NCBI RefSeq assembly: GCF_041248615.1
Contig: NZ_CP158426.1
Strand: one strand, 5' to 3'
DNA: 64,000 nucleotides
Source of the DNA: Escherichia coli
GTDB taxonomy: Bacteria; Pseudomonadota; Gammaproteobacteria; Enterobacterales; Enterobacteriaceae
Positions 31,171 through 62,436 of the stretch are shown in pieces. Within the stretch, counting starts at the first letter, position 1. Every line of letters begins with the position of its first letter. Both the position numbers and the translations under genes were made by a program. The notes beneath the pieces were generated by a model. The model made no database searches. It had not been told where the DNA came from and worked only from the letters and a program-made list of their open reading frames with translations.

Positions 31171-33453
31171 ATGTCCGAGCTTAATGAAAAGTTAGCCACA
31201 GCCTGGGAAGGTTTTACCAAAGGTGACTGGCAGAATGAAGTAAACGTCCGTGACTTCATTCAGAAAAACTACACTCCGTACGAGGGTGACGAGTCCTTCC
31301 TGGCTGGCGCTACTGAAGCGACCACCACCCTGTGGGACAAAGTAATGGAAGGCGTTAAACTGGAAAACCGCACTCACGCGCCAGTTGACTTTGACACCGC
31401 TGTTGCTTCCACCATCACCTCTCACGACGCTGGCTACATCAACAAGCAGCTTGAGAAAATCGTTGGTCTGCAGACTGAAGCTCCGCTGAAACGTGCTCTT
31501 ATCCCGTTCGGTGGTATCAAAATGATCGAAGGTTCCTGCAAAGCGTACAACCGCGAACTGGACCCGATGATCAAAAAAATCTTCACTGAATACCGTAAAA
31601 CTCACAACCAGGGCGTGTTCGACGTTTACACTCCGGACATCCTGCGTTGCCGTAAATCCGGTGTTCTGACCGGTCTGCCAGATGCTTATGGCCGTGGTCG
31701 TATCATCGGTGACTACCGTCGCGTTGCGCTGTACGGTATCGACTACCTGATGAAAGACAAACTTGCACAGTTCACCTCTCTGCAGGCTGATCTGGAAAAC
31801 GGCGTAAACCTGGAACAGACTATCCGTCTGCGCGAAGAAATCGCTGAACAGCACCGCGCTCTGGGTCAGATGAAAGAAATGGCTGCGAAATACGGCTACG
31901 ACATCTCTGGTCCGGCTACCAACGCTCAGGAAGCTATCCAGTGGACTTACTTTGGCTACCTGGCTGCTGTTAAGTCTCAGAACGGCGCTGCAATGTCCTT
32001 CGGTCGTACCTCCACCTTCCTGGATGTGTACATCGAACGTGACCTGAAAGCTGGCAAGATCACCGAACAAGAAGCGCAGGAAATGGTTGACCACCTGGTC
32101 ATGAAACTGCGTATGGTTCGCTTCCTGCGTACTCCGGAATACGATGAACTGTTCTCTGGCGACCCGATCTGGGCAACCGAATCTATCGGTGGTATGGGCC
32201 TCGACGGTCGTACCCTGGTTACCAAAAACAGCTTCCGTTTCCTGAACACCCTGTACACCATGGGTCCGTCTCCGGAACCGAACATGACCATTCTGTGGTC
32301 TGAAAAACTGCCGCTGAACTTCAAGAAATTCGCCGCTAAAGTGTCCATCGACACCTCTTCTCTGCAGTATGAGAACGATGACCTGATGCGTCCGGACTTC
32401 AACAACGATGACTACGCTATCGCTTGCTGCGTAAGCCCGATGATCGTTGGTAAACAAATGCAGTTCTTCGGTGCGCGTGCAAACCTGGCGAAAACCATGC
32501 TGTACGCAATCAACGGCGGCGTTGACGAAAAACTGAAAATGCAGGTTGGTCCGAAGTCTGAACCGATCAAAGGCGATCTCCTGAACTACGATGAAGTGAT
32601 GGAGCGCATGGATCACTTCATGGACTGGCTGGCTAAACAGTACATCACTGCACTGAACATCATCCACTACATGCACGACAAGTACAGCTACGAAGCCTCT
32701 CTGATGGCGCTGCACGACCGTGACGTTATCCGCACCATGGCGTGTGGTATCGCTGGTCTGTCCGTTGCTGCTGACTCCCTGTCTGCAATCAAATATGCGA
32801 AAGTTAAACCGATTCGTGACGAAGACGGTCTGGCTATCGACTTCGAAATCGAAGGCGAATACCCGCAGTTTGGTAACAACGATCCGCGTGTAGATGACCT
32901 GGCTGTTGACCTGGTAGAACGTTTCATGAAGAAAATTCAGAAACTGCACACCTACCGTGACGCTATCCCGACTCAGTCTGTTCTGACCATCACTTCTAAC
33001 GTTGTGTATGGTAAGAAAACTGGTAACACCCCAGACGGTCGTCGTGCTGGCGCGCCGTTCGGACCGGGTGCTAACCCGATGCACGGTCGTGACCAGAAAG
33101 GTGCAGTAGCCTCTCTGACTTCCGTTGCTAAACTGCCGTTTGCTTACGCTAAAGATGGTATCTCCTACACCTTCTCTATCGTTCCGAACGCACTGGGTAA
33201 AGACGACGAAGTTCGTAAGACCAACCTGGCTGGTCTGATGGATGGTTACTTCCACCACGAAGCGTCCATCGAAGGTGGTCAGCACCTGAACGTTAACGTG
33301 ATGAACCGTGAAATGCTGCTCGACGCGATGGAAAACCCGGAAAAATATCCGCAGCTGACCATCCGTGTATCTGGCTACGCAGTACGTTTCAACTCGCTGA
33401 CTAAAGAACAGCAGCAGGACGTTATTACTCGTACCTTCACTCAATCTATGTAA
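31171..33453 (+). CDS. pflB: pyruvate formate-lyase (formate C-acetyltransferase 1)
   Basis: 760 aa ORF; C-terminal glycyl-radical motif RVSGYAVRF; strong codon bias. Confidence 0.96.
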
Positions 33454-48979: not shown

Positions 48980-51490
48980 ATGAGCCATCACCACACGCAC
49001 CTGGCGTACCCGTGGAACGCCCCGCTGCCGGTTATTGATCCTGAGACATTCGGCAGAGCATTACCGCAGAAGCCAACCGCATTACAACGGGCAATCCGTG
49101 ACTACCTCACCGAAGACATTCGCACTGAGGCCCGGCTGGATGAAGAAACCGTGGCCTTCCTGACAACCACGGACAAAGGTAAGCAAATTAATTCACACCT
49201 TCACCGGGACGAAGAGCGGCAGATAAGGCTGGATAAGCTGGCACGACACAGACGCGAAAATCCGCCAACGGCGGTATCGGAGGCGATAGCCGAACTTCGC
49301 ACCCTGCCCTCGTTTCTTGCCAGTGTGTTGATCCGTGATCTGGCACGACTGAACCGGAAACAGCAAAGTGCCCGCAGTGAAGGTGTAAAAAACAACAGCG
49401 CATACGTGGCCGATAATTTCGTTCGCCGTGGACTGCGTGCGCGCCTGAAACGTATTGAAAGGGTTAACGACCGCTTTGCAACGCCGGCATTCAAAACCAC
49501 CGTCGTGCGCCATCGCCTTGAAGAACTGCTCACACTGCCGCAACTCACCCGTGACGAAATCCAGCGCATCGCCACACTGACAGCCCAGGCATTCGCCGCA
49601 GAATTTGAACGCATATGTGATGAAGTTCTTGAACGGACAGGCAAGGATAATGACAGCCCGGTTATCTGGCTGCTGGCCTACCAGAAGGTGGCACGCACAG
49701 CCTTAATTCTGGGCATGGTCCCGCCATACTGGCCGGAACTCGAAATCAGGCACAACCGACGCACACCGCCGGACCCTGAACGGGTTCCGGGTGCGGTACT
49801 GCGCATCACCTGCGCGACCTGGTGGAACAACCAGTTACGCCACGTCGCCGATCTCTGGCGGGAGGAGTTACTGCGCGCCGCCGGCAGAGTGTCACGTAAA
49901 CAATCCCCCTATATCAGCCATGAGTCACTACTGGAGTTCCGCGAGAAGCGCCAGCGCACCTGTGACTTTCTCAAAAGCTGGGATATTGAAAACGAAGACG
50001 GCGAGCGCCTGAGTCTGGAGGACGTGTACTGGGCTGGCCTGGGTAATCCACGCAACCGCCGCAATGAAATGATGGTCTGCGTCAGAGGGATGGAGATGGT
50101 GGCCGAATTACGGGCTGACGTCGCATTCTTCATCACAGTAACCACCCCTTCCCGCTTTCACAGCGTGAACGAGAACGGCAGCCTGAACCCGAAATACAAC
50201 GGTGCCACAGTACGAGATGCCAGTGATTATCTGGTTTACGACTTCTTCGCAGCCGTAAGAAAAAAAATAAAAAAAGAGGGGCTGGGCTGGTACGGCGTGC
50301 GAACCGCTGAGCCACACCATGACGGCACGCCACACTGGCATATGCTGGTATTCACTTCCCCGGAGAACGCAGAGCGCATCATCGAAATTATGCGCGAAGC
50401 AGCAATTAAATCAGATCGCCACGAACTGGGGGACGATATTTCACCGCGCTTTAAATGCGAGAAGATAGACCCGGAAAAAGGCACACCGGCAAGCTATATC
50501 GCAACCTATATCGGTAAGAACCTGGACGCCAGCGCTTTCCACAACAATGATCCGAAAACCGGAAAACCTTACGTTGATGAGGAATCCGGGAAAACCATGG
50601 CGGAAACCGTGGAGAACGCCATTGCCTGGGCAAGCCTTCACCGCATCCGTCAGTTCCAGTTTTTCGGCATTCCGCCCCGCCAGGTATGGCGTGAACTCCG
50701 CCGCCTTGCAAGCCAGATGGAGCGCAACCCGGCATCACCGAAGCACCTCGATCATGACGATATTGACGCCATTATGGCTGCCGCAGATGTGGGATGTTTT
50801 GCCACCTACATCATGAAACAGGGTGGTGTGCTCATTCCGCGCAACCAGTATCTGGTCCGCACCGCATACGAAACCGCAGACGAAGCCAACGACTACGGTG
50901 AATTCCCTCAACGTATCTACGGAATCTGCGCCCCGTCGCTCGGAGAGCGGTACACCATATGCACCCATCCGGACGAGTGGAAACTGGTTAAAAAAGAAAC
51001 AACACCAGACAACCGCACGGGCGAGGGTTTTGACCTTCATGGCGACCCCGTCGCCCCTTGGACTCGTGGCAATAACTGTCCCCGGGATGAAAAAACAGAC
51101 AATCACGGACCAGAAAACAGGCAGGACCCCGGACGACTGACGCTTCCCGAAGAGAACCTGGAAAGCTGGCTGAATACGTTAAGCAGGGGCGATCGGAGAA
51201 AACTGCGTAATCAGATTAAAAATCAGCCGTCGGGCGCAAAAACCGGACAAAACGACACCACACCGGCATCTGACACCCCTGTAAGGGTGGGGATTGTCGT
51301 GCCTGCGGATACCGCGACGGACACGCAAATCGCCCGCGAACTTGATGCGCTGGGTGTGCAGTTGCCTGACGCGGCCATCATCTCCGTGCGTAACGGTGCC
51401 CGTGTGCGTCTGGATAACGGGGGAACAGCGTACTGGGATGAGTCAGCCCGTCACATCATCACAGAGCAGCCAGTGGAGGCGGGAGCATGA
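48980..51490 (+). CDS. A: replication initiation endonuclease, P2 gpA-like (rolling-circle)
   Basis: 836 aa ORF in the gene A position; HUH-type GTPHWHMLVF motif. Confidence 0.8.
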   Translation: MSHHHTHLAYPWNAPLPVIDPETFGRALPQKPTALQRAIRDYLTEDIRTEARLDEETVAFLTTTDKGKQINSHLHRDEERQIRLDKLARHRRENPPTAVSEAIAELRTLPSFLASVLIRDLARLNRKQQSARSEGVKNNSAYVADNFVRRGLRARLKRIERVNDRFATPAFKTTVVRHRLEELLTLPQLTRDEIQRIATLTAQAFAAEFERICDEVLERTGKDNDSPVIWLLAYQKVARTALILGMVPPYWPELEIRHNRRTPPDPERVPGAVLRITCATWWNNQLRHVADLWREELLRAAGRVSRKQSPYISHESLLEFREKRQRTCDFLKSWDIENEDGERLSLEDVYWAGLGNPRNRRNEMMVCVRGMEMVAELRADVAFFITVTTPSRFHSVNENGSLNPKYNGATVRDASDYLVYDFFAAVRKKIKKEGLGWYGVRTAEPHHDGTPHWHMLVFTSPENAERIIEIMREAAIKSDRHELGDDISPRFKCEKIDPEKGTPASYIATYIGKNLDASAFHNNDPKTGKPYVDEESGKTMAETVENAIAWASLHRIRQFQFFGIPPRQVWRELRRLASQMERNPASPKHLDHDDIDAIMAAADVGCFATYIMKQGGVLIPRNQYLVRTAYETADEANDYGEFPQRIYGICAPSLGERYTICTHPDEWKLVKKETTPDNRTGEGFDLHGDPVAPWTRGNNCPRDEKTDNHGPENRQDPGRLTLPEENLESWLNTLSRGDRRKLRNQIKNQPSGAKTGQNDTTPASDTPVRVGIVVPADTATDTQIARELDALGVQLPDAAIISVRNGARVRLDNGGTAYWDESARHIITEQPVEAGA

Positions 51491-51918: not shown

Positions 51919-52109
51919 GCAGAATATTACTTTTTCTGCTGTTTTTCGCGCCATTCGCACAATCAGCCACGCCGAACTGCGTAGCGAAAAAGAGCAACAC
52001 CGTTGTCATTGTCCAGTGTGATGACGGCACGGTAACAATCACCGACTCGAGCAAAGGAAGCGTCATTGTCTGCCGTAAAGAGAAACCCTGTCAGCGAACC
52101 GAACTTTGA
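51915..52109 (+). CDS. hypothetical small secreted Cys-containing protein (64 aa, GTG start)
   Basis: GTGA overlap with preceding stop, RBS gggagga 7 nt upstream; signal-peptide-like SRILLFLLFFAPFAQSA then 4 Cys in about 45 residues. Confidence 0.4.
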   Translation: MSRILLFLLFFAPFAQSATPNCVAKKSNTVVIVQCDDGTVTITDSSKGSVIVCRKEKPCQRTEL

Positions 52110-52120
52110 AGGAAAAATAT

Positions 52121-52435
52121 ATGAACAGGAAACAGAAGCAGGAACTGAAAGGCTTCTTACGTAAAGAAATTGCCAGGCTGGAAGATGTGGAATCTCAGTC
52201 ATCAGATATTCCATTCGGAATGGATATCAACGACGCCTGTATGCTCCAGGTATACCGCATAGCTCAGGCTGCACTACAGGCAAAACCGTCAGATGGACTG
52301 GTTAGAGCAGTACGTTTCTATGAACTGGTAAAGCGTGAGAATCCGCCAGTCGAAACCGGAGCATGGCAAGACGCTGTTGACTGGGTGCTCAAAGAGGCTT
52401 GTCAGGTTGTAAACACTGGCATCAAAGGAGACTGA
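52121..52435 (+). CDS. hypothetical protein (104 aa)
   Basis: ORF 52106-52435; start at MNRKQKQ with RBS gaagga; first gene of a coupled three-gene set. Confidence 0.45.
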   Translation: MNRKQKQELKGFLRKEIARLEDVESQSSDIPFGMDINDACMLQVYRIAQAALQAKPSDGLVRAVRFYELVKRENPPVETGAWQDAVDWVLKEACQVVNTGIKGD

Positions 52436-52436
52436 T

Positions 52437-52646
52437 ATGGCTATTGCCGCAAGTTACACCATGCATCTCTATTGTGATTGTCGCCAGTGTACAAATGGTA
52501 AATATCAAACGCCAGACTTCGGTGAATATATCGGTACGTCATGGACTGGCTGTGCAAAAGAGGCGCGTAAGGATGGCTGGCGAATAAGCAAAGACAAAAC
52601 TCGTGCTTTTGCGCCCGGGCATAAAGTTTTGAGGATTAACAAATGA
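52437..52646 (+). CDS. hypothetical small Cys-containing protein (69 aa)
   Basis: Starts 2 nt after previous stop; CDCRQC...C pattern suggests a metal-binding knuckle. Confidence 0.45.
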   Translation: MAIAASYTMHLYCDCRQCTNGKYQTPDFGEYIGTSWTGCAKEARKDGWRISKDKTRAFAPGHKVLRINK

Positions 52647-53044
52647 CCACTATAACCAAAGAGCGACTACTGACAATCAGGCAGTGGCGCGAAACATACG
52701 GACCTGGTAGCAACGTTGTACTGCCAGCCGAAGAAGCGGAAAAACTGGCACGGATTGCTTTGGCATCGCTGGAAGCAAAACCAATAGGTGCTTTCCACAT
52801 TGCAGAACAGCAGGTCGATGGCACAAGTGACTACATCAAGGATGGGGAGTACCGCTTGCTGACATCTGAAGAACAAAAGATAGCCCAACTTTTAGGCGAT
52901 GCATGGAACCTGTATTTTACATTGCCAGTTGAGCATCCAATGGGTAGAGATGAATTTTGCCGGGCAATTCATCATTGCCAAAATATGGTGTTGGCACGCC
53001 CTGCCATCAGGGCGCTGGCCAGTAAGGGGCAAGGCTATAAATAG
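52643..53044 (+). CDS. hypothetical protein (133 aa)
   Basis: ATGA overlap with previous ORF; followed by terminator. Confidence 0.45.
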   Translation: MTTITKERLLTIRQWRETYGPGSNVVLPAEEAEKLARIALASLEAKPIGAFHIAEQQVDGTSDYIKDGEYRLLTSEEQKIAQLLGDAWNLYFTLPVEHPMGRDEFCRAIHHCQNMVLARPAIRALASKGQGYK

Positions 53045-53045
53045 A

Positions 53046-53077
53046 TGAGCAAAACGCCCTCCTCCAGGGCGTTTATT
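53046..53077 (+). terminator. rho-independent terminator after the coupled gene cluster
   Basis: aaacgccctcctccagggcgttt hairpin followed by atttc. Confidence 0.65.
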
Positions 53078-53081
53078 TCAA

Positions 53082-53170
53082 TGCACAATAGTGCACAAAT
53101 TTGCACAATTTTTTTGAACGACTTTTTGCCCTTCCGGCCCGTGTGGCGTCTGGATCCGTCGGGGATCCGT
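53082..53170. promoter_or_regulatory. phased direct repeats (operator or iteron-like)
   Basis: TGCACAA at 53082, 53092 and 53102 (exact 10-bp phasing); GGATCCGT twice at about 53151 and 53163. Confidence 0.45.
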
Positions 53171-53534
53171 GCGTGCACGAAAAAAGGCCTTTTTCTGCGC
53201 GCAGGTGACGGGGGAACAGCCCGCGTTTCAGGGGGTAAATAGCATTCCCTGAACGATGTTGCAGCGACACAACAGAATGGCTGTATTTCTCACGCTGAGC
53301 GTAAAAAAGACGTAAAAGCTTGATTTGATGGGGGTGAAAGATAAGGCCGTCAAAATCGCACTGAGGCAGCGAGAATATGTCGTCAGAGTTGCGGGGTTGC
53401 GTAAGCATCCGCCCGGCGATGATGGCTACAAGGTTGGAGATGTTGTGAAATTATCTGAAGGAATAACCAGCTTGCAGGAGAACCCGGGCAAAGTCAGAAT
53501 AGCGGCAGGCATCAACTCAAAAGAGGATAATGTC

Positions 53535-53634
53535 ATGAGCCACTTTAATGATTTATGCCAGATCAATCGTGAAGCTGAAGAAAAACGCGCTGAGGCAGCT
53601 CAAATTTTGCGGGATGAAGCGGCAAGGCTGATTG
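53535..53634 (+). pseudogene. 5' portion of a phage cargo gene interrupted by the IS21-family element
   Basis: RBS aagagga 7 nt upstream of ATG at 53535; the reading frame continues in phase with ORF at 56221-56625 once the IS is removed. Confidence 0.4.
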
Positions 53635-53829
53635 ATTGCGTATTTTCATGAAAGGAGATCACTCAATAACTTCCATCGAGATCGGGTAATAACATTTGAA
53701 CAGATCGCTGAATAACATCGATGGAGATCACTTTTGACTCATTTTGTTATTCAGTGATCTCCATCAATGTTATTGGAACTTCACAGGTGTGTTGATCTGT
53801 ATCTTTTGCCATTCCGGTAAAGGATACCT

Positions 53830-55371
53830 ATGCCAACAGTTCCAATTTCTATGAGAAAACTTAAAGAAATTCTTAGGCTTAAATACGGTGTTGGACTCAG
53901 CCATCGACAAATTGGTCGTAGTCTTGCAATCTCCCCTTCCGTTGTATCCAGATATGCTAATCGGGCGGCTCAACTTGGCATAAAGCAGTGGCCCTTACCT
54001 ACAGGATGGGATGATACAAAACTAAAACATGCGTTCCTTCAGACCCAGGTTAAGATGAAGAAGCACTCTCTGCCTGACTGGGCTACAGTACACCGGGAAC
54101 TGCGTAATAAATGCGTGACGCTGCAGCTACTCTGGGAAGAATACTGTGAGCGTAATCCAGGCGGTTTTTACAGCTATAACCATTACTGCCGGATGTACCG
54201 TGAATGGCTCAAAACCACTTCACCATCAATGCGTCAGGTACATAAAGCTGGCGAAAAACTTTTCGTTGATTACTGTGGACCTACCGTTGGCGTTACCGAC
54301 CCTGAGACCGGAGAAATAAGAACTGCTCAGGTCATCGTAGCTGTTCTCGGGGCATCAAGTTACACATGGGCAGAGGCCACCTGGTCTCAGCAGCTTGAAG
54401 ACTGGGTGATGAGTCATGTTCGCTGCTTCCAGTGGTTGGGTGGCGTTCCTGAACTTGTTGTTCCGGACAATCTGAAAAGCGCCACATCCAGGGCATGTAA
54501 GTATGATCCTGACGTTAACCCTACCTACCAGCAGATGCTTGAGCATTATAATGTCGCAGTTTTGCCTGCGCGGCCACGTAAACCGAAAGATAAAGCCAAA
54601 GCTGAAGTTGGCGTTCAGGTTGTTGAACGCTGGATCATGGCCCGAATCAGGCATGAGATCTTCTACAGCCTTGCATCGCTTAATCAGCGCATTCGGGAGT
54701 TGCTGGAAAGACTGAATAACAAAATAATGCAGAAGTTGGGTTATTCACGTGCAGAACTCTTCATCCAGCTTGATAAACCCGCACTGAAGCCTCTTCCTGA
54801 AGCCAGTTACAGTTACACCCTGGTGAAGAAAGTCAGAGTTCATGCCGATTACCACGTGGAAATCGACAAACATTACTACTCGGTTCCATGTTCGCTGTTA
54901 GGCCAGCAACTGGAAGCATGGATCTCCGGAGAACTGGTAAGACTCTTCAATCAGGGGCAGGAGGTTGCTGTGCACCCGCGCAAGCGTACTTATGGCTACA
55001 GTACCCGCAACGAGCACATGCCTGAAGCTCATCGACAGCATGCCACCTGGACGCCAGAGCGTCTTCTGGAATGGGCGGGGCACATAGGCAGTGAAACTCA
55101 TAGTTATGTGCTTCATATACTGAACTCTCGTCCACATCCGGAACAAAGCTATCGCTTCTGCCTTGGACTCCTGAACCTTCATAAAAAATACAGTAAAGCC
55201 AGACTTAATGCAGCATGTGCAAGAGCTCTGAAAACAAAGGTATGGCGTCTGTCAGGTATTAAATCGATCCTGGAAAAAGGTCTGGATAAACAACCTGTTC
55301 AGGATCCAAAACCAGATCTGTTATCCACGATGGAACACGAAAACGTACGCGGCAGTGAGTATTACCACTGA
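53830..55371 (+). CDS. istA: IS21-family transposase IstA
   Basis: 513 aa ORF; N-terminal HTH (LSHRQIGRSLAISPSVVSRY) and integrase-like core. Confidence 0.85.
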   Translation: MPTVPISMRKLKEILRLKYGVGLSHRQIGRSLAISPSVVSRYANRAAQLGIKQWPLPTGWDDTKLKHAFLQTQVKMKKHSLPDWATVHRELRNKCVTLQLLWEEYCERNPGGFYSYNHYCRMYREWLKTTSPSMRQVHKAGEKLFVDYCGPTVGVTDPETGEIRTAQVIVAVLGASSYTWAEATWSQQLEDWVMSHVRCFQWLGGVPELVVPDNLKSATSRACKYDPDVNPTYQQMLEHYNVAVLPARPRKPKDKAKAEVGVQVVERWIMARIRHEIFYSLASLNQRIRELLERLNNKIMQKLGYSRAELFIQLDKPALKPLPEASYSYTLVKKVRVHADYHVEIDKHYYSVPCSLLGQQLEAWISGELVRLFNQGQEVAVHPRKRTYGYSTRNEHMPEAHRQHATWTPERLLEWAGHIGSETHSYVLHILNSRPHPEQSYRFCLGLLNLHKKYSKARLNAACARALKTKVWRLSGIKSILEKGLDKQPVQDPKPDLLSTMEHENVRGSEYYH

Positions 55372-55382
55372 TACGGGATCCA

Positions 55383-56132
55383 ATGATGAATCATCTTTAC
55401 GAACAACTGACCGCACTTAAACTCACCGGCTTCCGTGATGCGCTTAAAAAGCAACTTGCTCAGCCGGGCACATACCAGGAGCTGGGCTTCGAAGAACGCC
55501 TGTCATTACTGACAGCAGAAGAACTAACCTGCCGTGAAAACAGGAAGGCAGAGCGTCTGATCAAACATGCACGGTTCAGACTTAATGCTGAGTTATCAAA
55601 GCTGGATTATCGTAACAATAGAGGGCTGGACAGGGCCCTCATCCGTTCACTCAGTCAGGGAAACTGGTTAACCCTGAAACAAAATATTTTACTGACCGGG
55701 GCCACCGGCAGCGGTAAAACGTTCCTGGCATGTGCACTTGGTCATAATGCCTGCCGACAGGGATACAAGGTCTACTATTATCGCCTTAAAGCGCTGATGG
55801 AACAGTGCTATCAGGGGCATGCTGATGGAAGATACAGCAAACTTTTGACCAGGCTGAATAATAGCGATCTGCTGCTTCTGGATGACTGGGGGCTGGAACC
55901 TCTCTCATCAGAACAGCGTAGCGACCTGCTGGAAATAGTGGATCTGATGTACCAACGAGGCTCAATCATCGTAGTGAGCCAGTTGCCGGTGGAAAACTGG
56001 TACAAAATGATCGGAGACTCCACACATGCGGATGCCATCCTAGATCGACTGGTTCATGGCAGTATCAAGATCGAACTTAAAGGAGAATCAATGCGGAAAA
56101 TACAATCTCCGTTGACCGAAGGAGATCAGTGA
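55383..56132 (+). CDS. istB: IS21-family helper ATPase IstB
   Basis: 249 aa ORF with Walker A GATGSGKT and Walker B LLLLDDWG. Confidence 0.85.
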   Translation: MMNHLYEQLTALKLTGFRDALKKQLAQPGTYQELGFEERLSLLTAEELTCRENRKAERLIKHARFRLNAELSKLDYRNNRGLDRALIRSLSQGNWLTLKQNILLTGATGSGKTFLACALGHNACRQGYKVYYYRLKALMEQCYQGHADGRYSKLLTRLNNSDLLLLDDWGLEPLSSEQRSDLLEIVDLMYQRGSIIVVSQLPVENWYKMIGDSTHADAILDRLVHGSIKIELKGESMRKIQSPLTEGDQ

Positions 56133-56220
56133 AGGTAATTTAAAAACGGTTCTGTGAAAGTGACACGAACCGATCTCCATCGATGTTACTCACCGATCTC
56201 CTTCACGGTAATACGCAATT

Positions 56221-56625
56221 GATTTCTATGAAGAATGGCTGGGGCTTCCATCCATGTACTGGGAAGACGATGATGGCGACCTGCACCGCTACGTGGAGAC
56301 AGGCTTGCCATGTAAGACAGCGGCGGATTTTAGTCCTCTTTCAGTCCACAATATCGCATCTGCACCAGACAATATTTTCCGCATGGCCGTGCGAACCTGG
56401 GTTAAGTCATCTGACAGCAGCTACCCGGTAAGCGTGGTTATTGCACTTGAATTATATTCAGTAGATGCGGAACGGGTGTCTCTGAGAGTCCGGGTGGAAG
56501 ACGATATTTCTGTTCGCGTATTTATCAATAAACCCAGCGAAGAAGCCTGGGGCGATGTTGTTATGCACATGAAAAAGCACATCGCTAATCACCTGAAAAA
56601 GCGAGCGCCATCAGCACTTCGTTAA
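56221..56625 (+). pseudogene. 3' portion of the IS-interrupted phage cargo gene
   Basis: Open frame from the IS right junction (DFYEEWLGLPSMYWEDDDGDLHRY...) to stop at 56625, in phase with the upstream fragment. Confidence 0.4.
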
Positions 56626-56691: not shown

Positions 56692-57747
56692 TCAGGATAT
56701 GGGCTGGGTGTCTAACAGTGCGTAAGGGTTAAAACGGATCACCTCTTCGCCCAGCCAGTCGTTGACGTGTTTCATTGCTTCCATGACGGGCATCAGTTCG
56801 TTAATGGCAAACACACGGGCTGCCTTCTCCACATCCCCGAATGACCCCTTCTCACCCGGCATGGCCCCCATCAGCTGCGGCGGTACACGGTGCACGGACA
56901 GCACATCATCACGCGATGCAGCCTTGACGTTCATGAACTCATCCTTTGCGGTGATTTGCTGAAACGGCAAAATCTGTACGCCATCCTTACCACCTCCCGC
57001 CGCGTGGATGAGCAGATTTTTAAACGCCCCGCCACCACGCGCGCTTTGCAGTGTTTCCCGCAGTTTTTCCATGCTTTCACGGTCAACCTGCGCCGCACCG
57101 ATGTAGACAATACAGCCCGCGTGTGAGCCGTTATCGTAGTAGAGCTTGCGGAAGATATCGGCGGAATGTGACAGGCTGGCAGACAGCAGGCCGCCCAGGT
57201 AATCCGGCATCCCGTAAATCTCCTGGTTGATATCAGGATTCATCAGGTGGCATATCGTCCCCTCACGAAAGCGGTACTCTTCCTGTCCTTCCTGTATATA
57301 CCACCATGATTTCATATCGCTGCCACGTCGCATGTATTTCGCCAGCGCCCGGCGCAGGGCCAGCGGTTCGCCAAGCATGTTGCGCCGCAGCTCAAGACAG
57401 GCATTACCGAACACAAACCAGTCCATCGCCACCCCGGCGAACTCCTGGCGGGACAGCAGAGGATGTGGAATATAGCAGCCCAGCAGCACATTACGTTTGA
57501 AGCTGAGCGCCGACTGGTGCCAGGACGTCTGGCGGGCAGCCCGTGCCAGTCCGTACCAGTCAACGGGCGTTTCAAACCACCGCCCGTTGTCGGCGCAGTA
57601 CATGCTGTCCAGCAGGTCGGCCCCTGACAGCCGGTAAGGTCCTTCAAACGTGAAGGCACTCAGTGTCGGGTCGCTTCGCAGGGAATCCGCAAGGCTGCCC
57701 TGCGCTGCGCGGGCGTTCGTACGTCGTTGTTTATTTTTTCTGCTCAT
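56692..57747 (-). CDS. Q: phage portal protein, P2 gpQ-like
   Basis: 351 aa ORF, leftward, stop overlapping the downstream terminase gene; position and size match P2 Q. Confidence 0.8.
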   Translation of the reverse strand: MSRKNKQRRTNARAAQGSLADSLRSDPTLSAFTFEGPYRLSGADLLDSMYCADNGRWFETPVDWYGLARAARQTSWHQSALSFKRNVLLGCYIPHPLLSRQEFAGVAMDWFVFGNACLELRRNMLGEPLALRRALAKYMRRGSDMKSWWYIQEGQEEYRFREGTICHLMNPDINQEIYGMPDYLGGLLSASLSHSADIFRKLYYDNGSHAGCIVYIGAAQVDRESMEKLRETLQSARGGGAFKNLLIHAAGGGKDGVQILPFQQITAKDEFMNVKAASRDDVLSVHRVPPQLMGAMPGEKGSFGDVEKAARVFAINELMPVMEAMKHVNDWLGEEVIRFNPYALLDTQPIS

Positions 57748-59498
57748 CAGAACTCCGTAACACTGAAGGGGGCGGCATCATGTTCACCGCCGACAGGTTC
57801 GTTGATAACGGCCAGCATGGTGGCCCATGCAAGATCGCCATGGCTTACGCCTCTTGCGCGATCTGTTTCGTAGGTGATAAATCCGGCCTGCGTTTTTGTT
57901 TTGCGTACCGCGTTAAAGGCGCTCACCAGTTCGCGCTCGCTGCGGTCGTACTCCCACCGCCCGGCGCGCATGAGCTGCAGCATCTTCAGAACCAGCGTGC
58001 GCTTTGATGACAGGGTGAAGGTGTAGGGAATGGCTGCCGGAAAAAAGCGCTTCACAATCTGATACACCGCATCCCCGTGACCGCCGGTTACGTCAATACC
58101 GATATGCTCAACGTTATAGCGAAAGGTGAACTCTTCAATCACCTTCGCCTGCGCCTCAAACTCCAGCCCCTGCACCCGCCGCGTCTCCACGGTGCGAAAA
58201 CGCCCGCCCGGTACGGCTGGCGGCACCACCACGACAACCGCCCCGCTGTCACCGTTCCCGCTACTGCCGTTGGCGTCGTACCCAATCCACACAGGGCGGT
58301 TCCCCATCGGACGCGGTGCAAACGGCTTCCAGTCCGGCCACTCGTCGTATCCGTCAACACCGCAGCCAATCAGGATATTCAGGTTAAATGCCGATTCCCC
58401 TTCGCGAGCAAATTCACACATGTAGAGATTGCGGAACTCGTCTTCAGTGTTATTGCGCCGGATTTTGTCAATGTTGGTTAACGTCCATCCCTGACTGACC
58501 ACATCTTCCAGCGTCACAATTTGCCGCCAGATATAGTCAGGACAGATAAGGCCGTTATGAAGCGCATTCCAGCTCACATCAAAATGCTGACGTTTATGAG
58601 TACGAAGCCCTTCATTCCAGTGATCGCCGTTCCAGTATGCATACGCCTCATGTGTTTCACTTGATGGCGTGGAAAAATAGGTACACCGCAAACCATCCAG
58701 CGTTGCCATAGCAGCAGCCACCTTGCGCAGCTCTGCGAAACGCCCCGTCCAGAAAAACTCATCAAAATACAGATTCCCTGTGTACGCTTGCGCGGTGGCC
58801 GCAGAAGTGCCGAGAAAATGCAGCTCTGCACCGTTGGAGAGGATGACTTTATCGCCCCCTTTCAGTTCCACATCAACTTCAGATGCAGCCTTCTGAATAA
58901 TGCTTTTAAACTGGAGCGCCTGACGACGAGACGCAGACAAAAAAATCTGGTTACGCTGGTAAGGTTGTGCCACATCGTCACGCAGCGCCATCAGCAGCGC
59001 TTCCTGCGCAAAATACCAGGTCGCCCCAATCTGGCGGGATTTCAGGATCATCCTGTCAGTAATTCCGGCACGCTCACAGGCACCGATAGCATCAAGCCAT
59101 TTGCGCTGGTGTCCGGCCAGCCTGTCGGTAATTTTTTCCCGCAGCGCCGCGATCTGTTCCGGCGTGAAATGATTTTTGTGTTTTTTCGCCCGGCCTTTCT
59201 TTCCTGTTGCCGTCTCATCCGGCAGACCGTCATGCAGCTTTTTAAGCTGACGGGTCAGCAAATCAATTTCCTTAAAGTCCCCGCCTGTTTTATTCTGTTT
59301 TTCCGTGAGCTGAATGAGTCGCGCATCCATGGACTGCGTGACACGCTGAACCGGGGGCGTCTCATCCCACTGGTCGCGTTTTTTCCACGAATGGATCGTG
59401 TTCTGGTTGATACCCATAAGGCGGGAAATTTCCGCAACAGGGTAACCCTGCCAGTACAGCTGGCGTGCCCGCTGGCGAACAAATGTATCCTGAATCAT
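57747..59498 (-). CDS. P: terminase large (ATPase) subunit, P2 gpP-like
   Basis: 583 aa ORF, leftward, divergent from O; size and position match P2 P. Confidence 0.8.
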   Translation of the reverse strand: MIQDTFVRQRARQLYWQGYPVAEISRLMGINQNTIHSWKKRDQWDETPPVQRVTQSMDARLIQLTEKQNKTGGDFKEIDLLTRQLKKLHDGLPDETATGKKGRAKKHKNHFTPEQIAALREKITDRLAGHQRKWLDAIGACERAGITDRMILKSRQIGATWYFAQEALLMALRDDVAQPYQRNQIFLSASRRQALQFKSIIQKAASEVDVELKGGDKVILSNGAELHFLGTSAATAQAYTGNLYFDEFFWTGRFAELRKVAAAMATLDGLRCTYFSTPSSETHEAYAYWNGDHWNEGLRTHKRQHFDVSWNALHNGLICPDYIWRQIVTLEDVVSQGWTLTNIDKIRRNNTEDEFRNLYMCEFAREGESAFNLNILIGCGVDGYDEWPDWKPFAPRPMGNRPVWIGYDANGSSGNGDSGAVVVVVPPAVPGGRFRTVETRRVQGLEFEAQAKVIEEFTFRYNVEHIGIDVTGGHGDAVYQIVKRFFPAAIPYTFTLSSKRTLVLKMLQLMRAGRWEYDRSERELVSAFNAVRKTKTQAGFITYETDRARGVSHGDLAWATMLAVINEPVGGEHDAAPFSVTEF

Positions 59499-61659: not shown

Positions 61660-62436
61660 ATGCTGACACCGGCACAGGCTCATTTCCAGCACGTGATGGC
61701 TTTACGGGCAGGAACGGCAGCAGAAAACGAGGATATCGTGGCCCGCACGGCTCATGAGCAGGTCCTTCACCGTCTGCGCCTGGCACAGCAACGCATAAAG
61801 GGCGTCCAGGCAAAAGCGGCAAAGGCCGCGCTCAAGCGTGAAATGCTGCCGGGTTTTGCAGGCTGGATAGACGGCACGCTGGAAGCCGACGGCGGACAGC
61901 AGGATGAGGTGATAGCCACACTCATGGTGTGGGCCGTGGACTGTGGCGACCTGGCGCTTGCACTGCGCATCGGGGATTATGTGGTTCGCCACAACCTCAC
62001 GATGCCTGACAACTTCGGGCGTACGGCAGCCACGGTACTGACCGAGGAAATCTGCAACCCTGTTCTGACACAGGCCGGAACGGATGCACACGCCGATTTG
62101 TCCGGCTACATCGAACCGCTGGACACCCTCTGGCAAATTGTCGCGAACCGGGACATGCCCGATGAGGTCCGCGCCAAGCTGTGCAAGGCATGCGCCTTTG
62201 CCCGTCGTGGCCTGACCGATGCCGACAGCATGGCGGTGAGTCTGAAGCTGTTCCGTGAGGCAATGCACCTTAACCCGAATGCGGGGGTAAAACGTGAGAT
62301 TGCCACGCTTTCACGGGCCCTGAAAAAGGCCGGACAGGATGAAGCCGCTGCCGCACAGGAGCCTGCGGCACAGAAAGATACAACCAGAGAACAGACCACG
62401 ACGCCGAAGGCGAAAGCGAAGGCGAAACGTGGTTAA
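61660..62436 (+). CDS. M: terminase small (endonuclease) subunit, P2 gpM-like
   Basis: 258 aa ORF following N. Confidence 0.7.
   Translation: MLTPAQAHFQHVMALRAGTAAENEDIVARTAHEQVLHRLRLAQQRIKGVQAKAAKAALKREMLPGFAGWIDGTLEADGGQQDEVIATLMVWAVDCGDLALALRIGDYVVRHNLTMPDNFGRTAATVLTEEICNPVLTQAGTDAHADLSGYIEPLDTLWQIVANRDMPDEVRAKLCKACAFARRGLTDADSMAVSLKLFREAMHLNPNAGVKREIATLSRALKKAGQDEAAAAQEPAAQKDTTREQTTTPKAKAKAKRG

Follow-up and report, generated by a model that had tools for sequence, protein, structure and literature searches.

A phased TGCACAA array in a P88-like prophage of Escherichia coli is probably the distal part of a P2-family cos packaging site

Three exact copies of TGCACAA stand at 10-bp steps in front of an interrupted gene in a prophage of Escherichia coli, and they raise the question of which protein reads them and what it does there. 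A first-pass annotation of the window (that is, the whole 64-kb stretch of DNA that was analysed) took them for a multi-site operator or an iteron of a DNA-binding protein. The prophage itself is P88-like (Xuanwuvirus) and belongs to the P2 family. We consider it likely that the triple belongs to the cos packaging site of this P88-like, P2-family phage as its distal part on the left, where it would act as a phased terminase-binding array. The array has a fixed position and a fixed spacing, it is conserved and shared with a satellite-like island, and it is equivalent to the arrays of P2, P4, 186 and PSP3.

The repeats lie on the plus strand at 53082-53088, 53092-53098 and 53102-53108, in the sequence ...AATGCACAATAGTGCACAAATTTGCACAATTTTTTTGAACGACTTTTTGCCC..., and a motif search of the window confirmed the three starts and the exact 10-bp phasing given in the first-pass annotation. 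TGCACAA is rare here, with 5 copies on both strands of the 64-kb window compared with 15.6 expected from shuffles, and the triple within 27 bp is therefore not a product of chance; the probability that three exact copies would occur by chance at a fixed spacing of 10 bp somewhere in the window is estimated at ~2e-7. The only remaining copies are at 1134 and 40101, and none lies near the regulatory or replication genes. The copies had also been described as embedded in GTGCAC-like palindromes. This is correct for the middle copy, which has a perfect GTGCAC, but the outer copies read ATGCAC and TTGCAC.

Several elements that had been overlooked lie immediately to the right of the array. A fourth TGCAC starts at 53174 and is followed by an A6 run, and the three repeats sit 92, 82 and 72 bp upstream of it. 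This proximal site, the fourth TGCAC with its A-run (TGCACGAAAAAA, 53174..53185, plus strand), is found 30 bp before a predicted cut in a G-rich 19-mer (53204-53222), which had escaped notice as well. Two T-tracts, T7 at 53109-53115 and T5 at 53123-53127 (segment 53109..53128, plus strand), had likewise been missed; they are kept as tracts among relatives, with the consensus TTTTTt..a.....TTttTg and a mean of 0.78 bit in the 49 representatives described below, and they may give the DNA a static bend. Between the T-tracts and the proximal site lies a G+C-rich spacer (53129..53173, plus strand), the length of which is conserved while its sequence is variable.

The neighbourhood is that of a P2-like genome. 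To the left, the gpA replication gene (48980-51490) is followed downstream by small cargo ORFs that end by 53044, and the cargo operon is closed by a Rho-independent terminator with a 9-bp perfect inverted repeat (AAACGCCCT-CCTCC-AGGGCGTTT, 53052..53074, plus strand). To the right, an interrupted 236-aa gene of unassigned function (plus strand; 5' part 53328..53637, 3' part 56218-56625) lies between cos and the portal gene. The portal protein, a gpQ homologue (56692..57747, minus strand; PF04860; 43% identity to P2 gpQ), is read towards cos, and it is followed by the large terminase subunit, a gpP homologue (57747..59498, minus strand; PF03237, PF17289, PF06056) with an N-terminal Terminase_5 domain and an HTH_23 match at residues 8-41, and by the small terminase subunit, a gpM homologue (61660..62436, plus strand; PF05944 Phage_term_smal, E = 4e-37). 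The array thus has the terminator of the gpA-side cargo on its left and the 3' end of the portal gene on its right, and the same layout is seen in P88 and in an uninterrupted E. coli prophage. In P2-like phages, cos is located between gpA and gpQ, beside a variable cargo hotspot (PMC9122126), and the P2 record has the cohesive ends annotated 187 bp from the end of Q.

A variable cargo hotspot beside cos is described for P2-like phages (Rousset et al. 2022, PMC9122126) and for 186-related prophages (Dodd & Egan 1996, as cited in PMC5694545). The window agrees with this picture, in that its cargo ends at the terminator left of cos and more cargo lies between cos and the portal gene, but the hotspot describes the neighbourhood and not the repeats. 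Between cos and portal lies a second site for cargo, as already seen in phiCTX (ctx) and phiRSY1. On the left, a 133-aa cargo ORF upstream of cos matches genes annotated as DUF551/EaA over its first ~210 bp (52643-52850, 92-96% identity), the matching genes being those of lambdoid and Stx-converting phages, and the match indicates a putative mosaic exchange between phage families at the cargo hotspot; the whole 133-aa ORF had no match in Pfam. On the right, the first ~130 bp of the 236-aa gene are common to the 42-aa ORF of P88, and the sequences diverge afterwards. No Pfam family was found for the 236-aa protein, and an intact copy of its gene is present in NZ_CP033635 (L003 6689-7399), where an otherwise identical prophage is uninterrupted. 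Comparison with this uninterrupted locus delimits the interruption as an IS21-family insertion (53638..56217, plus strand; istA 53830-55371, istB 55383-56132) with Pfam matches to rve, Mu-transpos_C_2 and IstB_IS21 and a 6-7 bp target duplication, ATTGAT(T), in the 236-aa gene. Direct and inverted repeats of 22-30 nt at 53634-53775 lie inside the left end of the IS and are taken to be the multiple terminal repeats of the IS21-family element.

Conservation sets the boundaries of the element. P88-like phages and 1138 of the 5426 complete E. coli genomes carry the block 53082-53458, and most of the matches begin at 53082, the first base of the first repeat, regardless of the upstream sequence. 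More distant relatives, namely Enterobacter phage phiT5282H and a prophage of E. coli strain ET650, keep only ~53082-53225, and the whole conserved cos block as we define it (53082..53246, plus strand) is shared by the P88-like phages and the satellite-like island. Genes flanking the array differ on both sides among the phages that carry it, and those upstream are unrelated between relatives. The terminator at 53052..53074 is outside the conserved block: its sequence differs among relatives, and conservation upstream of the repeats is ~0.1 bit.

To quantify this pattern, a portal-protein alignment was used to collect 80 viral contigs, of which 72 had a recognisable cos, and the 49 representatives left after removal of near-duplicates were aligned without gaps, with the proximal TGCA as anchor. 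In these 49 sequences the upstream flank has a mean of 0.1 bit, and the information then rises to 0.96, 1.17 and 1.35 bit in repeats 1, 2 and 3. It amounts to 0.58 bit in the spacer (53129..53173), 1.61 bit in the proximal TGCAC with its A-run, which is the most conserved element, and 1.34 bit in GCGCGCA together with the cut sequence. YGCA occurs at -92, -82 and -72 from the proximal site in 33, 38 and 42 of the 49 representatives, respectively, with a background of 0.72 per offset, so that the array for which conservation in related prophages had been proposed as a check is indeed strongly kept in related elements. The gap of 72 bp from the distal array to the proximal site is invariant though the spacer sequence diverges. 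The first repeat is the least conserved of the three distal repeats.

A sub-lineage of IMG/VR relatives (L049, L077, L080-L086) departs from this scheme. Its distal array is degenerate, its cut sequence is GGTGACGGGGGGCAAGCCCCC, and beside the cut it has overlapping TGCAT and TGCAC motifs (GTGCATGCACGAAAAA). These phages may represent a transitional class or one of relaxed specificity. Considering the weakness of the first repeat together with the degenerate array of this sub-lineage, the distal sites may be helpful but not essential.

The comparison with well-known members of the P2 family was made relative to the cohesive ends, which are annotated in the P2 and phiCTX records and were taken as the end of the linear record for P4, 186 and PSP3. 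Counted from the first base of the cohesive end, TGCAT occurs at -123, -111, -101 and -29 in P2, at -124, -111, -101 and -29 in P4, at -124 (and -120), -111, -101 and -29 in 186, and at -120, -111, -101 and -29 in PSP3, and TGCAC of the window occurs at -122, -112, -102 and -30 relative to 53204. The earlier statement that no known P2 site matches the repeats is therefore contradicted by P2 itself. When the positions are counted from the proximal site instead, P2, P4, 186 and PSP3 all have TGCAT at -82, -72 and 0, and phiCTX and Smp131 have YGCAG at -81/-71 or -83/-73, with TGCAG at the proximal site. The proximal equivalents are TGCATTAAAA at -29 in P2, P4, 186 and PSP3 and TGCAGAAAAA at -28 or -29 in phiCTX and Smp131. 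Most of the sequence between the motifs differs between P2 and P4, and their similarity lies almost wholly on the array side of the cut. As a separate observation, the distal TGCAT array of P2 overlaps positions -28 to -54 of the leftward old-tin promoter (L005 1925-1979, P2 33424-33478), the transcript starts of which are annotated at 33424 and 33426, and occupancy of the packaging site and transcription of old could for this reason interfere with each other in P2.

The window site and the cos of P2, 186, PSP3 and P4 are thus alike in genomic position, in a G-rich cut sequence (13/19), in the sharing of the site with a satellite-type element, in a TGCA at the proximal site that is followed by an A-run and lies ~29-30 bp from the cut, and in distal TGCA copies 72, 82 (and ~92) bp upstream of the proximal site. 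They also differ in several ways. The core motif is TGCAC(AA) in the window and TGCAT in the P2-type sites; the step of the first repeat is 10 bp in the window compared with 12 in P2, 13 in P4 and 186, and 9 in PSP3; and the proximal spacer is 1-2 bp longer in the window. Furthermore, the window has GCGCGCA before the cut sequence and no GCGCGC after it, whereas in P2 TGCGCGC follows the cohesive end. Beyond the P2-type sites, a further parallel is phiCTX (NC_003278), the record of which names an 'R3' and 'R4, R5, R6 repeats' spanning the cohesive ends. It has YGCAG at -81, -71, -55, -9 and 0 from the proximal site, beside experimentally annotated ends, but its fifth base is G and the context is G+C-rich.

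The fifth base of the motif divides these elements into classes. P2, P4, 186 and PSP3 have a T there, the P88, Klebsiella and Enterobacter lineages as well as the satellite-like island a C, and phiCTX and Smp131 a G, and within each class the distal and proximal sites share the same base. This co-variation would fit a single phage-encoded reader of all four sites, but with no more than three classes, each of them also a phylogenetic group, it is suggestive and not proof.

With regard to the literature, the conserved core of cos is given as 55 bp (Ziermann & Calendar 1990, as cited in PMC3931495, PMC5694545 and PMC9594776). From the P2 and P4 sequences we reconstructed this core as 29 bp starting at the proximal TGCAT, the 19-nt end and a further 7 bp. 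By this reconstruction, the distal triple would lie outside the 55-bp core. The later papers covered here describe only the 55-bp core, and a search of full-text literature with the sequence strings returned no papers.

The position of the cut itself can be predicted from the same relatives. The putative cohesive-end sequence (cosN) is GGTGACGGGGGAACAGCCC at 53204..53222 on the plus strand. It is invariant in alignment A1 and shares 13 of its 19 positions with the cohesive end of P2, GGCGAGGCGGGGAAAGCAC. In relatives of the Klebsiella 3LV2017 type, GGCGAGGCGGGGG is aligned in the column of GGTGACGGGGG of the window, and the cohesive end of P2 has exactly this GGCGAGGCGGGGG as its first 12 nt. 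In addition, the experimentally determined cohesive end of phiRSA1 begins with GGTGAGGCGGGG (PMC5694545). Based on this column match, the identity with P2 and the end of phiRSA1, we place cosN at 53204-53222, as a prediction with boundaries that are uncertain by ~2 bp. A cohesive end to the left of TGCGCGC (53178-53196), as P2 would suggest by analogy, was tried and rejected, since that stretch varies among relatives and the 19-mer is what aligns with GGCGAGGCGGGGG.

One public record bears on this assignment. The first base of the linear record LR595891.1 of phage P88_4B11 (L002 position 1, L006 position 1501) corresponds to 53127, a point that separates the T-tracts from the spacer and lies 77 bp left of the predicted cut, and this is the only public P88-like linear record that begins near cos. 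Its start may have been chosen arbitrarily on linearisation, or it may hint at physical ends other than those predicted; as a physical end, 53127 would find no support in homology with P2-type ends. If it were the true end, the cosN assignment would be wrong and the array would still be at the genome end. No record starting at the predicted cosN was found among public Klebsiella and P88-like phages.

The two copies of GGATCCGT that had been noticed after the array are present, at 53152-53159 and 53163-53170, that is, 11 bp apart within the spacer, and they are the only ones in the window. Each contains the GGATCC palindrome, so that the pair is also a 6-bp inverted repeat. Their conservation ends with the close P88-like relatives. 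In these sequences the arrangement is GGATCCGTCA(A/G)GGATCCGT, and the doubled GGATCCGT is found only there; more distant relatives, and also P4, have a GGCGCGGTCTGAG-like sequence instead and keep at most part of the second copy. We therefore read the pair as a probable lineage-specific local duplication and not as a separate conserved site.

A further carrier of the array is an island of ~12.5 kb between gcd and hpt (L097 2129-14640 in NZ_CP148349.1), which occurs in 52 of the 5426 E. coli genomes. Its P4-like genes encode an integrase, AlpA, an Icd-like protein, a toprim primase and an ogr/delta-like protein. It also carries a second recombinase, a MazF toxin-antitoxin pair and its own major capsid gene of the P2 family (423 aa, PF05125), the product of which is extended by ~130 aa at the N-terminus. 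Strain ETEC4071 has this island and a P88-like prophage in the same genome. From its gene content the island looks like a satellite. Its 236-aa protein, without a Pfam family, was compared with the interrupted 236-aa protein of the prophage on account of their equal length, and the two are unrelated. The only sequence that the island shares with the prophages is L008 3001-3166, which runs from the first TGCAC to ~24 bp past the predicted cosN, and the cos of the island is of the TGCAC type. In the case of P2 and P4, cos is the sole homology between helper and satellite (PMC9122126). The prophage and the island, satellite-like by its gene content, correspondingly have only 53082-53246 in common.

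Taken together, the locus has the location between gpA and portal, the G-rich end of ~19 nt and the TGCA with an A-run upstream of the cut that mark a P2-family cos, and the distal TGCA at 72 and 82 bp from the proximal site, a feature defined in the present comparison, is found as well. We therefore propose the following arrangement. The cos site would extend from ~53082 to 53246 and comprise three phased TGCAC motifs, two T-tracts, a spacer of fixed length, a fourth TGCAC with its A-run and the G-rich 19-nt sequence, in which terminase would make its staggered cut ~30 bp past the fourth TGCAC. One sequence-specific DNA-binding module of terminase may occupy all four TGCAC sites, the candidate readers being gpM, which is the small subunit, and the helix-turn-helix domain at the N-terminus of gpP, the large subunit. 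With the 10-bp phasing and the gap of 72 bp, which is ~7 helical turns, the sites would be placed on one face of the helix, and the T-tracts beside the distal array could supply a bend. Wrapping or looping of the DNA may then bring the nuclease to cosN, and satellites that copy the same array could be packaged by the terminase of the helper. For P4 cosmids, longer flanks around the 55-bp cos core raise transduction more than 1000-fold (PMC9594776), an effect that is compatible with a role of the distal array but does not map it.

A comparable arrangement is known from an unrelated phage. In cosB of lambda, three R sites are bound by the small terminase subunit gpNu1, and the DNA is bent by IHF or intrinsically. 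These R sites and the bend are reportedly the subject of work by Shinder and Gold from 1988 and by Xin and Feiss from 1993 (both listed in PMC9611059). The two systems are alike in having several short repeats beside the nicking site and an adjacent bendable segment, and in the presumed role of the repeats, which is to anchor terminase with its nuclease at cosN. They show no sequence relationship, however, and in the window the small subunit is a candidate reader of the repeats. Moreover, cosB of lambda is on the terminase-gene side of cosN, the side that is packaged first, whereas the repeats in the window are on the side away from the portal and terminase genes. The terminase of P2 works on circular monomers.

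The alternative that survives best also places the array in cos, but assigns it to another step, such as the termination of packaging (in the manner of lambda cosQ), the binding of a host architectural protein or the holding of the last-packaged or first-injected end at the portal or tail. The array would lie within the last 122 bp of the right end of the genome, the adjacent T-tracts suggest bending, and the sequence shared by P2 and P4 is almost wholly on the array side of the cut. Nevertheless, we regard it as unlikely. A copy of the core motif with the class-specific fifth base unchanged is also present 29-31 bp from the cut, which argues for one phage-encoded reader near the nicking site and not for a host factor, and no match to a host-factor consensus was seen in an informal look.

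Far less probable is that a phage regulator binds the repeats as an operator for the 236-aa gene on the right or as a replication iteron. This idea captured something real, since the repeats do have the look of a phased, conserved and sharply bounded multi-site for protein binding, but neither an operator for the interrupted gene nor an iteron fits the evidence. In its favour, the repeats are phased, partly palindromic and intergenic, they lie 220 bp upstream of a plus-strand ORF, and the array of P2 overlaps -28 to -54 of the leftward old promoter, so that a secondary regulatory use is possible in some phages. In the window, however, a consensus scan of the plus strand found no promoter-like site at 52400-54000, and the prophage has no further copies elsewhere. 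A late-promoter dyad of the Ogr/delta type (TGT-N12-ACA) was looked for by eye near the repeats, and none was seen. The downstream gene is absent or different elsewhere, with only the 42-aa ORF in P88 and an ogr/delta-like gene in the island, and the upstream genes are unrelated between relatives; the array is kept despite these different flanking genes, in the satellite-like island too, and at a fixed 72 bp from the fourth copy and ~102 bp from a sequence like the P2 cohesive end. The predicted cut, furthermore, falls between the repeats and the 236-aa gene and would put them at opposite ends of the genome in virion DNA, which counts against an operator. Against an iteron counts the replication origin of P2, which is inside gene A.

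The least probable reading is that GTGCACAAATTTGCAC followed by T7 forms another intrinsic terminator, which would protect cos against read-through: the consensus scan does flag 53091-53106 with the T-run as terminator-like, but the stem is limited to 5 bp, there is already a strong terminator 20 bp upstream, the first repeat lies outside the hairpin and is conserved all the same, and the TGCAT arrays of the P2 class keep their positions while lacking both such a hairpin and such a T-run. Candidate RNA elements were also looked for at this locus. A search of 52000-54000 against Rfam with permissive E-values gave only matches at chance level, the best-scoring of which fall in the IS21 end, where the microRNA-like matches are likewise due to chance; a structured RNA was therefore rejected, and neither Rfam nor the conservation pattern supported a retron or another non-coding RNA at the hotspot.

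In conclusion, the array is best explained as part of a phage packaging signal, and there is accordingly no case for following it up as a new system of regulation. The TGCAC class is an addition to a known kind of element, the P2-family cos, and it brings a predicted cos with a cut position for the P88-like prophages that are found in about one-fifth of complete E. coli genomes. It also brings a cos architecture for the whole family that the later papers covered here do not describe: three phased TGCA motifs and then, after a fixed gap of 72 bp, the proximal TGCA, its A-run and the cut site. As a tentative proposal, which we hold to be possible rather than probable, the distal TGCA array may be a general and under-described second recognition element of P2-family cos, outside the 55-bp core and at a strict spacing of 72 bp, in which the fifth base (T, C or G) would set the packaging-specificity classes that match helpers to satellites; the P88-like phages and the gcd-hpt islands that carry a capsid gene would then form the TGCAC class, as opposed to the TGCAT class of P2 and P4. 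The architecture suggests which bases might set the packaging specificity between helper and satellite. Such knowledge would be of use in designing P2/P4-type cosmids and transducing particles, for which flanks outside the 55-bp core make a difference in efficiency of more than 1000-fold (PMC9594776), and it would help to delimit the defence-gene hotspots that border cos.
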